Positions 9,032 through 63,178 are shown, counted from the first letter of the stretch. The stretch: 64,000 bases of DNA from Pyrinomonadaceae bacterium (GCA_050747225.1 JBOGOP010000003.1:7893-71892), one strand, 5' to 3'. Numbers and translations are program-made. The notes: generated from the sequence alone by a model not told the origin.

Positions 9032-10276
9032 ATGAAATCCTTAAAGCTGGCGCGTGCGTTCTTTGCTTCTATCGTTGTCTTGTCTTTACTCGCCAGCCTG
9101 GGCTTGAGTACCACGCCAGGACAGTCGCGACGCCAACCGCCCACGTCCTCTGAGAAAAAGAACAAACGTCCGACCGGAACTGGGGAACCAAGCGAGAAGC
9201 CCGAGGAGCCGCTGCCCCCGGATTTGACCGGCAAACCTCAAGAGGCTGAGAAGGTTACGGTTACCACTCAAATCGTTAATGTCGACACAGTGGTTTATCA
9301 CAAGAAGAGTGGACAAATCGTAACCGGGTTGAAGAAAGAGAACTTCTCGATCCAGGTGGATGGCGGGCCGCAAACCATCACCAACTTCTCAACGCCGGAG
9401 GCGCCGATCACGGTTGCCATGGTCGTTGAGTACAGCAAGTGGTCGGAGGCATTTGGCAACGCCTCAGGTGGAGGTTGGGAGCCGGGCACATACGAAGTGA
9501 TTCGACCCGTCGCGATGTTCTTGCAGCAGTTCGTCAAACCACCTGATGACTATGTTTCGGTGGTTGCGTTCGACATTCGTCCTACCCCATTGACAGACTT
9601 TACGAACGACCCTGGCCGTATTAGCCAGGTGATTAACCTGCTGTTGCGGAACTACCCTGCCTTTCGTGAAACGAACCTTTTCGATGCGCTCAAATTCACC
9701 CTAATCGGCGGACGCGGCGACTCCGTTGTGCTTGAGGATTCGAAAAGCGAGAAATCTGATTACTCCGGGCTGGTGAGTGTGCAGGGTCGCCGCCGGGCGA
9801 TAATACTCGTAGCTTCAGGCATCGATACATTCAGCAAAATCAACTACGGAGACGCCCGCAAGATAACGCAGAATGCCGGTATTCCGATCTACATCATCGG
9901 GACCGGCGAACTTTTTTATAAGAAGTATGACGCCTATATTCCGGCGACCGATACCCTATCTGGACTGCCCGGACGAATGACTTTTCTCCAGGCCAAGAAC
10001 GCGTTGGGAACATTTGCCAAAGAAACCGGCGGCGCTTATTACCCGGTTACATTCCCTGGCGAACTGCCTTCTGTGTTGGGCTCTATCAATGCACTCTTGC
10101 GCAGCCAGTACAGTCTGGCTTTTAATCCCGGCGACGTACACGACGGCAAGCAACACAAAATAAAAGTCAGCGTTGATGTAAATGGCGACGGCGTTATCGA
10201 TGACAAAGAATACGTCATCCAGGCGCGGCAGTTTTACAACGCGCCGAAGCCGGATGGCGCGCCGGGCAAGCAGTAG
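9032..10276 (+). CDS. VWA-domain protein (acidobacterial VWFA-related type)
   Basis: Signal peptide. The N-terminal pattern VTVTTQIVNVDTVVYHKKSGQIVTGLKKENFSIQVDGGPQTITNF is followed by a VWA-like core. Confidence 0.75.
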   Translation: MKSLKLARAFFASIVVLSLLASLGLSTTPGQSRRQPPTSSEKKNKRPTGTGEPSEKPEEPLPPDLTGKPQEAEKVTVTTQIVNVDTVVYHKKSGQIVTGLKKENFSIQVDGGPQTITNFSTPEAPITVAMVVEYSKWSEAFGNASGGGWEPGTYEVIRPVAMFLQQFVKPPDDYVSVVAFDIRPTPLTDFTNDPGRISQVINLLLRNYPAFRETNLFDALKFTLIGGRGDSVVLEDSKSEKSDYSGLVSVQGRRRAIILVASGIDTFSKINYGDARKITQNAGIPIYIIGTGELFYKKYDAYIPATDTLSGLPGRMTFLQAKNALGTFAKETGGAYYPVTFPGELPSVLGSINALLRSQYSLAFNPGDVHDGKQHKIKVSVDVNGDGVIDDKEYVIQARQFYNAPKPDGAPGKQ

Positions 10277-10372
10277 GCAGTAGGCAGTAGGCAGTAGGCA
10301 GTAGGCAGTAGGCAGAGAACGAAACCATAGTATTCGTTTTCTGCCTACTGCTTTCTGCCTACTGCCTTCTGC
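10270..10372. repeat. Heptamer-periodic inverted repeat, unit GCAGTAG (x6)
   Basis: Left arm 10270-10315 starts inside the stop codon of the VWA gene. Right arm is 10341-10372. Confidence 0.9.
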
Positions 10373-10407
10373 TTAGCGCTTACTGCCAACGGTGATACGC
10401 TCTGCGC

Positions 10408-11616
10408 GTGACTGAGAAAGATGTCGTAGTAATCGGCGGAGGAGCGGCGGGTCTCTTCTGCGCTATTGAAGCAGGCAAACGGGGACGCAGTATCGTCGTG
10501 CTCGAGCATGCGGGCCGCATCGGCAAGAAGATTGCCATCTCGGGCGGCGGCCGCTGCAATTTCACCAACCTTTTCACCAGCACCGACAACTTCATTTCCA
10601 GTAATCCACACTTCTGCAAGTCCGCCCTGGCGCGATACACGCCGGCGGATTTCGTTTCACTGGTCGAAAAACACGGCATCGCGTATCACGAGAAAAAGCT
10701 CGGACAACTCTTCTGCGACGGTAGTTCGGCTCAGATAATTGAAATGTTGTTAACTGAAGCGCGCGAGGCGGGTGTGGAGATCCGTTGTGGCTCGCTGGTA
10801 CAAGAGGTTAGCCGAACAGGAACGGCTGCTCTAGCGGGCGACTCGTCGCTGAGTGAGCCGCTCTTCAAAACTGAAACCGACAAGGACACCTTCGTTTCAG
10901 AATCGCTGGTTGTAGCAACTGGTGGATTATCGATCGCGCCCCTGGGGGCGACCGACTTCGGCTATCGTCTGGCTCGTCAGTTTGGCCTGACAATTGTCGA
11001 GCCCTGGCCCGCGCTCGTCCCCTTCACACTGTCGCGCGAAACGTTGCGGGAACTAGGACCGTTGAGTGGAATTTCGCTTGATGCCTCGGTCAGTTGTGAT
11101 GGCCGGCAGTTTCGCGAAAACATTCTGATTACCCATCGAGGCCTGAGCGGTCCGGCTATTTTGCAGGTCTCTTCTTATTGGCGTACGGGACAAAGCATCA
11201 ACATCAATCTGTTGCCAGACCACGATGCCCTGGAAGTTTTACGCGAACAGGAAAATAAGGAGATCACGCTGGCAAACTTCCTGAGTCAGTTTCTGCCGCG
11301 ACGCTTTGCTGCCGCCTGGTGCGCGCTAAACTTTCCTTCACAACCGCTCAAACGTTACAACTCACGCGAGCTTGCTGACATCGCGCTAAAACTAAATCAT
11401 TGGGAGATTACGCCAGTGGGAACGGAAGGCTACCGGAAGGCGGAAGTGACGGCGGGGGGAGTTTCAACAGCGGAACTCTCTTCGCAAACGATGGCGGTCA
11501 AGAGCGTTGCTGGCTTGTATTTTATCGGTGAGGTTGTCGACGTCACCGGTCACCTGGGCGGGTTCAATTTCCAGTGGGCCTGGGCATCTGGTTACGCGGC
11601 CGGGCAGGCGGTATAG
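10408..11616 (+). CDS. HI0933/BaiN-family NAD(P)/FAD-dependent oxidoreductase
   Basis: GTG start. VVVIGGGAAGL dinucleotide motif, GGGRCNFTN, and the C-terminal GLYFIGEVVDVTGHLGGFNFQWAWASG. Confidence 0.85.
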   Translation: MTEKDVVVIGGGAAGLFCAIEAGKRGRSIVVLEHAGRIGKKIAISGGGRCNFTNLFTSTDNFISSNPHFCKSALARYTPADFVSLVEKHGIAYHEKKLGQLFCDGSSAQIIEMLLTEAREAGVEIRCGSLVQEVSRTGTAALAGDSSLSEPLFKTETDKDTFVSESLVVATGGLSIAPLGATDFGYRLARQFGLTIVEPWPALVPFTLSRETLRELGPLSGISLDASVSCDGRQFRENILITHRGLSGPAILQVSSYWRTGQSININLLPDHDALEVLREQENKEITLANFLSQFLPRRFAAAWCALNFPSQPLKRYNSRELADIALKLNHWEITPVGTEGYRKAEVTAGGVSTAELSSQTMAVKSVAGLYFIGEVVDVTGHLGGFNFQWAWASGYAAGQAV

Positions 11617-11705
11617 GCAAGGAGCAGGAGGCAGGAGCAGGAGGCAGGAAAACGGCCATCGTTTCGTATTCGGGTCCTGCCTCCTGCTCCTGCCGTCTGC
11701 CTCCT
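11617..11705. repeat. Heptamer/hexamer-periodic inverted repeat, unit CAGGAGG
   Basis: Left arm 11617-11648 and right arm 11676-11705. It lies between convergent genes. Confidence 0.85.
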
Positions 11706-62359: not shown

Positions 62360-62362
62360 CTG

Positions 62363-62465
62363 GTAAATCGTAAATAGTAAATCGTAAATAGTGAACGCGA
62401 CGGCCCGTAAACGGTTCGCGAATGAATTCCAATACTATTCACGATTTACTATTTACGATTTACTA
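62363..62465. repeat. Heptamer-periodic inverted repeat, unit CGTAAAT
   Basis: Left arm 62363-62394 and right arm 62434-62465. It uses the same unit family as 16628-16754. Confidence 0.9.
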
Positions 62466-63023
62466 TCCGCCGGTGATGTCCTGACTTGAAAAGCTGCGGG
62501 CCTTGGGCGCCGCGTTAGTTAAAGAGACGAATTGCATTCGCAAGTCGGAGAGCAGGCCTTCAAGAATCTGTTTTTCCTGCGGCAGCAGGTTGCCGCGCGT
62601 TTTCTTTTCCAGCATTCCCAACACGTCGATCCAGTGTTTGCCGAGTTCCAGATCGACTTCGCGTTTATGGGTTACGGGATGCTCCATCATTCCCAGCGAT
62701 GCCGCGGCATTGGAAGCTATCGACATCAGGAAGCTGCCGAAACTTGCCGGATCATCGGCGTCGGGCAAGTCGGCTTCTTCGCTTTCCATTTCTGGTTCGG
62801 CACTCGCTGGTTTGGGTTCCTCTACCTGGGGCACCTCATTAACCGTAGCGGCGCCGGCATCCGCAACCGGCGTTTCCGGCACCGAACCAGCCGGGGCACC
62901 CGGGACCTCTGACTTTGCCGGTGTTGGTTCTGGTCTCTCATTCTCCGGTACGTCGCGCGGCGTGCCATCCGGATTGAAGAGTCGCCTATCGGTAACTTTG
63001 TAGCTGGTTTGTTCCTCGTTCAT
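62463..63023 (-). CDS. DUF1844-like protein
   Basis: N-terminal YKVTDRRLFNPDG, an acidic/Pro-rich linker, and C-terminal FGSFLMSIASNAAASLGMMEHP. Confidence 0.65.
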   Translation of the reverse strand: MNEEQTSYKVTDRRLFNPDGTPRDVPENERPEPTPAKSEVPGAPAGSVPETPVADAGAATVNEVPQVEEPKPASAEPEMESEEADLPDADDPASFGSFLMSIASNAAASLGMMEHPVTHKREVDLELGKHWIDVLGMLEKKTRGNLLPQEKQILEGLLSDLRMQFVSLTNAAPKARSFSSQDITGG

Positions 63024-63140
63024 CTCCCCGCCTATCTCTGACTGGACCCCTGAAACCGTCTAGCTTCAGGAAATTCTCCGCAGTTTGTTAAGGTCAGTCG
63101 ATGGTAGCACCCGTATGTTGTGCCTGCAAGACAGCCTGTA

Positions 63141-63178
63141 TTTTTCGACTTTGGACTTTGGACTTTGGACTTTAGACT
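63141..63178. repeat. Solo heptamer tract (GACTTTG x4-5)
   Basis: TTTTTCGACTTTGGACTTTGGACTTTGGACTTTAGACT. There is no local complementary arm. Confidence 0.85.

Follow-up and report, generated by a model that had tools for sequence, protein, structure and literature searches.

Heptanucleotide inverted-repeat hairpins in the gene and tRNA spacers of a Pyrinomonadaceae genome

Results

Period-7 inverted repeats form one structural class

The DNA analyzed here is a 64,000-nt window (GCA_050747225.1 JBOGOP010000003.1:7893-71892) of a metagenome-assembled genome (MAG) from a soil acidobacterium of the Pyrinomonadaceae (Acidobacteriota), and its MocA-like protein is identical to an NCBI protein carrying that family's name. 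It carries a large array of tRNA genes followed by protein-coding genes, which we named by Pfam scans of ~30 of its open reading frames (ORFs), and the spacers of both contain tandem heptanucleotide tracts arranged as inverted repeats. These elements, numbered E1 to E10 outside the tRNA array, are the subject of this study. Tandem tracts were sought over the whole window with Tandem Repeats Finder and with our own lag-p scan, arms were paired with an inverted-repeat finder, and RNA folds were compared to those of dinucleotide shuffles. At period 7 the lag-p scan yields 23 strong tracts, whereas periods 4-6 and 8-12 give none, so that the periodicity is specific and far in excess of what chance would produce. 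Tandem Repeats Finder reports period-7 arrays by the dozens, with 3-9 copies of the unit, and ~40 extra ones in the first 6.7 kb. Between them, the two methods confirm every period-7 tract that a first-pass annotation of this DNA had listed.

Nearly all the tracts are inverted pairs, with arms of 30-54 nt showing 77-97% complementarity. RNA folding predicts stems of 34-76 pairs, the eight elements folded having z-scores from −3.9 to −12.4 with no shuffled sequence folding equally well. The stems lie very close to genes (median gap of ~5 nt to a stop codon, a start codon, or a tRNA end), and several stop codons are found inside the first unit. Apart from these stop codons and from one translated arm, the tracts are confined to spacers.

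What the elements share is a period and a symmetry. Within this window alone there are 17 different canonical units, and where elements use the same unit, their loops and inner stems show no relationship. Three units, GCAGTAG, CAGGAGG, and GGACTTT, are common to the spacers of the tRNA array and those of protein-coding genes, so that the sharing of elements with the tRNA array proposed earlier holds for unit types. No target-site duplications were found at the flanks and no terminal inverted repeats beyond the tracts, while copy number is unequal between arms. An Rfam scan of the window at gathering threshold returned only tRNAs, with no known RNA family overlapping an element, and the tract scans found no elements in the 33-61.4 kb region. 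Together, these findings support a single structural class of period-7 inverted tracts, which is separate from U-tract terminators. The "family" of the first-pass annotation is thus one of structure and not of sequence.

The same spacers are occupied in related genomes

We counted occupancy by a strict period-7 test, which degenerate orthologs (the window's own E7 included) fail, in the window and in up to seven further syntenic Pyrinomonadaceae genomes. Tracts were detected in 6/7 genomes in the divergent spacer upstream of HPPK, in 3/7 between panB and panC, in 6/8 between coxM and mocA, in 1/7 between ech and acd, and in 5/7 between kynU and tdo. Four control spacers (HPPK/panB, mocA/ahpC, ahpC/ridA, and oye/kynU) gave, when combined, a tract in one of 31 cases. 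The same five spacers are occupied in up to eight syntenic genomes, and placement is not random. The earlier claim of placement at gene boundaries therefore stands as far as position is concerned, the elements being strictly between genes and in the same spacers in relatives, but there is no preference for a gene orientation, the spacers of the ten non-tRNA elements being co-directional in seven cases, convergent in one, and divergent in two.

Close relatives show how these elements vary. A 7.2-kb stretch of the window is 99.85% identical to GCA_975253635.1, the contig of which differs from the window by four single-nucleotide polymorphisms and one extra 7-nt unit in E1. In the related MAG L061, which is ~82% identical, the ortholog of E1 lies at the same stop codon and has 9 units instead of 6.6, another loop, and a right arm homogenized to CTTTCTG. 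Arms can change in a matched manner: L123 has AGTGGTC/GACCACT where the window has AGTAGTC/GACTACT-type arms. At larger distances, one spacer can carry other units, or a non-heptamer palindrome, in another genome. For example, in the kynU/tdo spacer, the window and L123 have hairpins of GGTCTTT and ACTTTGT, L128 and L129 have hairpins of AAGGATG, L130 has one of CAGTGGT, and L127 has a TTTGGAGTGCG...CGCACTCCAAA palindrome. Between panB and panC, the panC-proximal 3' arm TATTCACGATTTAC is kept in 7/7 genomes, two of which have lost or replaced the 5' arm.

Other palindromes are present in these genomes. One, which is not heptameric, is found at 31422-31525 in the divergent oye/kynU spacer of the window, with 41-nt arms that are 90% complementary and the core GGGCAGTAGCCCGAC. 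Since this core is also found in L127 (in the panB/panC loop) and in L130, it defines a second dispersed palindromic family. A third family, TTTGGAGTGCG...CGCACTCCAAA, is present in L126 (9861-10015), L127 (12905-13056 and 20095-20232), and L061 (4660), and takes, in other genomes, spacers that hold heptamer hairpins in the window.

Hairpins between tRNA genes

The tRNA array consists of 24 genes on the minus strand (133-6519), which cover most amino acids, and is broken by genes encoding an RtcB RNA ligase (3519-4697) and an HNH endonuclease (1816-2448). About 20 of its spacers (36-6653, minus strand) are period-7 inverted-repeat hairpins, the stems of which end a median of ~5 nt from the tRNAs. 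Their units are AAGGATG, CGGATTT/CGGATTG, GCAGTAG, CAGGAGG, GGACTTT, AAGTTTC, and AGTTTCG. The link between rtcB and a tRNA array is reminiscent of the stress-induced L-arrays of Anabaena (PMC8421152). A rearranged version of the array is found in L061. Two tRNA-Ile genes are present, one with anticodon GAT and the other with anticodon TAT (133-228); the latter is 96 nt long, ~20 nt above a standard tRNA, which suggests an insertion or an unusual arm.

Hairpins between protein-coding genes

E1 (10270-10387, plus strand) is located between a hypothetical gene and an HI0933-like gene and consists of 6.6 copies of GCAGTAG, an inner unique stem and loop, and a CTACTGC/CTTTCTG arm. The TAG stop codon (10274-10276) of the 9032-10276 ORF falls in the first GCAGTAG unit, in keeping with the earlier observation that the left arm begins in a stop codon. 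E2 (11615-11705) is a CAGGAGG-type hairpin occupying a convergent spacer, the stop codons of both genes being at or inside its arms. E3 (14929-15100), made of 7.4 copies of AGTAGTC and a CTACTGT arm, lies in the divergent spacer between a 12TM-like gene (13241-14920, minus strand) and HPPK (plus strand). Its loop contains the motif TTCATTCTATACTCAAC (15031-15047, plus strand), which is conserved upstream of HPPK in an alignment of four genomes and is probably an HPPK promoter element. E4 (16618-16753, plus strand) is a GTAAATC/GTGAATC-type hairpin in the panB/panC spacer, with the panB stop codon TAA in its first unit and a stem that ends 6 nt upstream of the panC ATG.

Further along, E6 (27367-27471, plus strand) is an ACTTTGT/ACAAAGT hairpin separating enoyl-CoA hydratase (ech) and acyl-CoA dehydrogenase (acd) genes. 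E7 (32836-32988, plus strand), in the spacer between kynureninase (kynU) and tryptophan 2,3-dioxygenase (tdo), is a composite hairpin with an outer part of the ACTTTGT type and an inner part of the GGTCTTT/GGACTTT type. E8 (61496-61573, minus strand) is an AGTGATG/CATCACT hairpin between a metallo-beta-lactamase-fold gene and ribF; as RibF starts at the ATG at 61489-61487 (MRLFHG...), E8 spans the interval from the stop codon at 61574-61576 to 6 nt before ribF. E9 (62363-62466, minus strand), a GTAAATC-type hairpin between a DUF1844 gene and a metallo-beta-lactamase-fold gene, has the DUF1844 stop codon (62463-62465) in its last unit, its other end lying 3 nt short of the following gene's ATG. 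Finally, E10 (63143-63178, plus strand) is a solo tract of five TTTGGAC units, as had been reported for 63141-63178. It has no partner, lies in a divergent spacer, and ends 6 nt before the mazG ATG (63185). The Pfam scans confirmed the names previously given to panB/panC, ech/acd, and the MocA-like gene that is next to E5.

Two of the nearby genes differ in architecture between genomes. The FAD_binding_3 monooxygenase gene (28748-29878) encodes 376 aa in the window and ~670 aa in L125 (15670-17676) and L127 (15118-17148), where the longer genes carry matches to Hint/intein and DUF559 (endonuclease-like), which suggests an intein insertion. Tryptophan 2,3-dioxygenase (32993-34246) is fused to PilZ here and in L123, the two being separate adjacent genes in L128, L129, and L130.

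One arm is translated as the start of a MocA-like protein

E5 differs from the other elements in that it encloses a start codon. Its 5' arm (24623-24661, plus strand), composed of GGTCTTT/GGACTTA units, begins 9 nt past the stop codon of the coxM-like gene for a CO-dehydrogenase flavoprotein, and the loop holds the start codon, an ATG (24686-24688, plus strand), of the MobA/MocA-like gene. The 3' arm (24689-24739, plus strand) is made of AAATCCA/AAAGTCC/AAAGACC units and would be translated as TKTEIQNPKSKVQRPKT, ahead of an NTP_transf_3 domain that begins at nt 24752. There is no ATG, GTG, or TTG between 24686 and the essential AAGxSxRMG motif. However, the earlier statement that 24686 is the only possible start is too strong because an upstream in-frame TTG at 24623 also opens the mocA frame. 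Comparison favors the loop ATG. At least 76 of 120 MocA homologs have an N terminus of the type MTKT(K/E)DQRPKT, in which KDQRPKT is the exact translation of three AAAGACC units. Seven of the 120 have short N termini such as MSAIILAAG, and the extension is therefore dispensable for the enzyme.

We then read the DNA of the coxM/mocA spacer in ten genomes, eight of which (the window, L123, L125, L127, L128, L129, L131, and L132) have a heptamer hairpin. All eight show the same arrangement, i.e., a GGTCTTT-type 5' arm after the upstream stop codon, an ATG or GTG in the loop, and an AAAGACC-type 3' arm in frame. The other two, L126 and L130, have non-heptamer palindromes at this position, one of which was read through by annotators. 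Translation of the 3' arm as a protein start, which was part of the original claim, is thus well supported by homolog N termini and by the eight genomes. We considered whether six homologs annotated from the internal Met of the RMG motif could be phase-OFF alleles and rejected this: in each of the two that were checked in DNA, the loop has an intact GTG in frame, which points to an annotation artifact, and no out-of-frame allele was found among the 120 homologs. Start-codon calls near hairpins are inconsistent more generally, as the longest ribF ORF (60536-61546) reads through an arm and the starts annotated for mocA (24623-25387 in the window) differ among homologs.

The hairpins do not resemble intrinsic terminators

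A consensus terminator scan of the window identified a 12-bp stem followed by a T-run at 26043-26070 and a second terminator-like site at 28642-28665. No heptamer hairpin was called, and no T-run or U-tract follows any element, for which reason we rejected assignment to intrinsic terminators. This agrees with the first-pass view that the elements are distinct from U-tract terminators. Of the two canonical terminators cited there as a contrast, the one at 26043-26070 is called, but the other, an 11-bp G+C-rich stem at ~58497-58530, has only four T behind it and is not. The latter stem is bracketed by a pair of 39-nt arms, 95% complementary and 132 nt apart, at 58406-58615 between convergent genes.

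As for the strand on which a stem might act, we compared folding of the sense and antisense sequences. The antisense strand folds better in 15/24 tRNA-array spacers, with 112 vs. 53 G·U pairs, and in 16 of 27 co-directional orthologous spacers from L123-L130 (sense in 9), with 121 vs. 89 G·U pairs, although these counts are not independent, since repeated units carry the same mismatch. This antisense trend is opposite to what would be expected from either sense-RNA selection or coding-strand deamination. Disruptive A·C mismatches are also slightly more numerous on the sense strand. Two further candidates were discarded. A missing Shine-Dalgarno sequence beside 3' arms is no special feature, such motifs being present in only ~1/3 of genes in these genomes, and translational coupling, with stop and start codons joined at the base of the stem, is inapplicable as a general role to tRNA, convergent, and divergent spacers.

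A G-rich-first polarity extends across phyla

Scanning one genome per species for exact (GCAGTAG)x4 returned at least 120 loci, and the matches listed include Acidobacteriota, Planctomycetota, Bacteroidota, Hyphomicrobiales, Chloroflexota, Cyanobacteria, and others. The 120 listed loci contain 246 period-7 tracts, compared to 0-9 at other periods (5-11), and 59 of 102 further tracts at these loci have an inverted partner. Representative loci from other phyla are likewise spacer-filling hairpins. The class is therefore not specific to one genome and is found in many phyla.

Across all sets, the G-rich arm is the 5' arm in 111 pairs, with the opposite order in 10. G-rich-first and C-rich-first pairs number 59 and 0 for the (GCAGTAG)x4 seeds, 25 and 4 for other pairs in other phyla, 12 and 1 for the syntenic genomes, and 15 and 5 for the window (~24 and 1 when counted by hand). 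Several of the five exceptions in the window are cross-pairs between neighboring elements; one exception, at 236-312, has AAGTCCA first. In every partnered seed, the GCAGTAG arm precedes the CTACTGC arm, an order that is identical when read from either strand.

Discussion

Heptamers are the overrepresented class of long simple sequence repeats (SSRs) in many bacteria (Mrazek 2007, as cited in PMC4692102 and PMC4679880), and elements of this kind are already known, with precedents in Xanthomonas, cyanobacteria, and Haemophilus. What is new is their acidobacterial instance with many units, their presence in tRNA-array spacers, their family-wide positions, the translated arm with a start codon in the loop, and the generality of the G-rich-first rule.

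A close parallel is found in Xanthomonas, in which 70-75 convergent pairs of GGGAATC tracts are found per genome, at positions conserved between species and with variable lengths, no function having been found (Rehm et al. 2015, PLoS One, PMC4692102). In both cases, intergenic tandem 7-nt units form convergent complementary tracts that are capable of forming a stem-loop, with the G-rich version first, and the same intergenic position is used in relatives, length and sequence being variable here. However, Xanthomonas has one G-rich unit with G-quadruplex potential, whereas there are at least 17 units here, most without G-runs. None of the window units contains a G3 run of the kind seen in a GGGNATC G-quadruplex unit, rare GGGAATN-type tracts being found only in other phyla. 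Filled tRNA-array spacers, a translated arm, and an acidobacterial host are further differences.

In Haemophilus influenzae, (ATCTTTC)n repeats in the 5' untranslated region of hmw1A/hmw2A form a long RNA hairpin that is cut by RNase III, and repeat number changes by slippage, for which both transcription and RNase III are needed (Rapun-Araiz et al. 2025, NAR, PMC12721329). The elements described here resemble it in that a heptamer SSR is an arm of a long RNA hairpin, albeit a predicted one. In contrast, hmw is a single phase-variable locus in which the pyrimidine-rich arm comes first and the right arm is G-rich and non-repetitive, while here there are dozens of loci with both arms repetitive and the G-rich arm first.

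Cyanobacteria harbor short tandemly repeated repetitive (STRR) heptanucleotide sequences, and long SSRs with units of 5-11 nt are found more widely in prokaryotes (Mazel 1990 and Mrazek 2007, as cited in PMC4692102 and PMC4679880). The TAACTGA repeats of Beggiatoaceae are direct repeats, with a single inverted case in 170 sets (MacGregor, PMC4679880). With these the elements share a period-7 excess, an intergenic location, a scattered distribution over phyla, and copy numbers that vary between close relatives, but STRRs and long SSRs have been described mainly as direct repeats, and here the inverted hairpin arrangement is the rule. The STRR consensus units in heterocystous cyanobacteria are CCCCAGT, TTGGTCA, and CAACAGT. 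None of the 17 canonical window units is equal to any of these.

Repetitive extragenic palindromic (REP) sequences, bacterial interspersed mosaic elements (BIMEs), and REP doublets forming hairpins (REPINs) of enterobacteria and pseudomonads are likewise extragenic palindromes found at the ends of genes and at operon junctions, fold in mRNA, and are elements for which mRNA stabilization and differential operon expression have been proposed (PMC3733652, PMC3116915). REPs are 20-40 bp long, have a conserved sequence headed by GTAG or CGTC that is present in many near-identical copies, and have a link to REP-associated tyrosine transposases (RAYTs, which are IS200/IS605-like), whereas only period and symmetry are shared here. 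Assignment to REP/BIME/REPIN was rejected, there being no conserved palindrome sequence but 17 units with unrelated loops. Assignment to a MITE (miniature inverted-repeat transposable element) was rejected in the same way, since tandem tracts that vary in length make up the arms, duplications are absent from the flanks, and the internal sequences bear no relation to each other.

Our best explanation, to which we give about an even chance, is that the elements are palindromic heptanucleotide microsatellites that are renewed by slippage and perhaps serve as RNA processing or stability stems. According to this scenario, a short unique inverted repeat at the center would have its flanks lengthened by tandem 7-nt units, and because G-rich units are 5' and their complements 3', the whole spacer can fold as one stem-loop of ~25-55 pairs. 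Growth and renewal would occur by slipped-strand mispairing together with arm-to-arm copying, i.e., template switching inside the hairpin. Survival would be limited to spacers in which a long stem-loop lacking a U-tract is tolerated, for the most part operon junctions and the spacers of tRNA arrays. By analogy with the hmw hairpin, the effect on RNA would most likely be that of a double-stranded site for processing or stability (RNase III-type cleavage or an exonuclease block), which separates cistrons or tRNAs and is not a terminator. This effect may, however, be incidental rather than selected.

Several findings weigh against this explanation. Two tracts in the window, E10 and 4753-4817, are solo. 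The arms of E3 may sit on separate transcripts, since they flank a conserved promoter-like motif. Orthologous elements have decayed or been lost in some genomes (panB/panC in L123 and ech/acd in L129), and the panB/panC 3' arm that is kept without its partner implies that a single arm can matter or persist alone. G·U enrichment on the sense strand, which would be a sign of selection on an RNA stem, is absent from the array spacers and the 27 orthologous spacers and is if anything reversed, with 31 spacers folding better on the antisense strand and 18 on the sense strand. Because the data points are not independent, we take this as an absence of support with an unexplained opposite trend.

A serious rival is a neutral origin, which we regard as possible though clearly less probable. 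Here the elements would be neutral or mildly harmful by-products of a 7-nt slippage bias and of hairpin-templated correction, which would regenerate hairpins wherever they are harmless to genes and regulatory sites. The unit-number polymorphism of E1, loss or decay in some lineages, replacement by unrelated palindromes, and the multitude of unrelated units all speak for this view, as do the occurrence of the same phenomenon in many phyla and the lack of G·U enrichment on the sense strand, where A·C mismatches are slightly in excess. Moreover, no function emerged in Xanthomonas despite reporter and transcriptome work (PMC4692102). It is less clear why by-products would occupy the same five spacers across the family and not the neighboring ones, why hairpins of differing types would recur at one spacer with strict polarity, or why the mocA start would be kept in a loop, with the arm in frame, in all eight heptamer-hairpin genomes read.

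At the other extreme, and in our opinion unlikely, the class might represent unrecognized cross-phylum operon-junction modules, self-renewing stem-loops of fixed polarity that would be held at junctions for family-level times and that, when cut or bound in double-stranded RNA form, would uncouple cistrons and tRNAs. With the G-rich arm transcribed first, a C-rich single strand would never be open to Rho, and a start codon displayed in the loop would make downstream translation dependent on the state of the stem.

The first-pass annotation had described the elements as "punctuation." If this is understood as signaling transcript ends or read-through, with factor-independent or Rho-assisting terminators or attenuators at gene ends, the idea is improbable. 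That elements begin at or in stop codons, that a convergent spacer, in which one would look for a bidirectional terminator, is filled by one of them (E2), and that convincing U-tract terminators are few in the window is what such a role would predict. However, not one element is followed by a U-tract, and stems of 30-50 pairs are unlike known intrinsic terminators. Efficient termination is also hard to reconcile with hairpins that separate all array tRNAs and cistrons such as panB/panC, ech/acd, and kynU/tdo, that enclose the mocA start, and that in two cases lie in divergent spacers.

We consider it very improbable that the tracts are arrays of binding sites for a protein reading 7 nt of DNA or single-stranded RNA (e.g., a cold-shock-domain protein), or cruciform or phase-variation switches that tune nearby promoters and starts. 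In Nostoc, heptamer repeats do affect the output of promoters (bioRxiv 10.1101/2022.06.06.494920), and an idea linking CspB to heptamers has been put forward (PMC4679880). Within the window, a solo tract (E10) is directly upstream of a start codon, the arms of E3 flank a promoter-like motif, the panC-proximal arm is kept without a partner, and gain or loss of one unit in the arm translated in mocA would alter the reading frame. Nevertheless, 17 units would demand either many specificities or a nonspecific binder, most tracts are paired, and the 120 mocA homologs include no out-of-frame allele, two "truncated" ones having an in-frame GTG.

Least credible of all are mobile elements of the MITE/REP/REPIN type copied to new spacers by a trans-acting enzyme, which might account for unit types shared between several loci of one genome and other genomes, for a spacer having different units in different genomes, for (GCAGTAG)n hairpins in many phyla, and for other palindromic families using the same spacers, but which are at odds with unrelated loops and inner stems in same-unit elements, with the lack of terminal inverted repeats past the tracts and of target-site duplications, with arm copy numbers that differ, with an orthologous persistence that points to vertical descent, and with the absence of a transposase or RAYT among the ~30 window ORFs scanned, the rest of the genome not having been searched.

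Our findings also have a practical side, as gene callers are inconsistent in placing starts around the elements (mocA and ribF) and assemblers may collapse them. More broadly, heptamer SSRs have since 2007 been known to be in excess in bacteria, still without an explanation. This lineage is an unusually clean system in which to address it, with many units per genome, a hairpin-spaced tRNA array, orthologous spacers that can be tracked, and an N terminus written by a hairpin. The G-rich-first polarity and the recurrence of differing hairpins at the same operon junctions constrain any mechanism.

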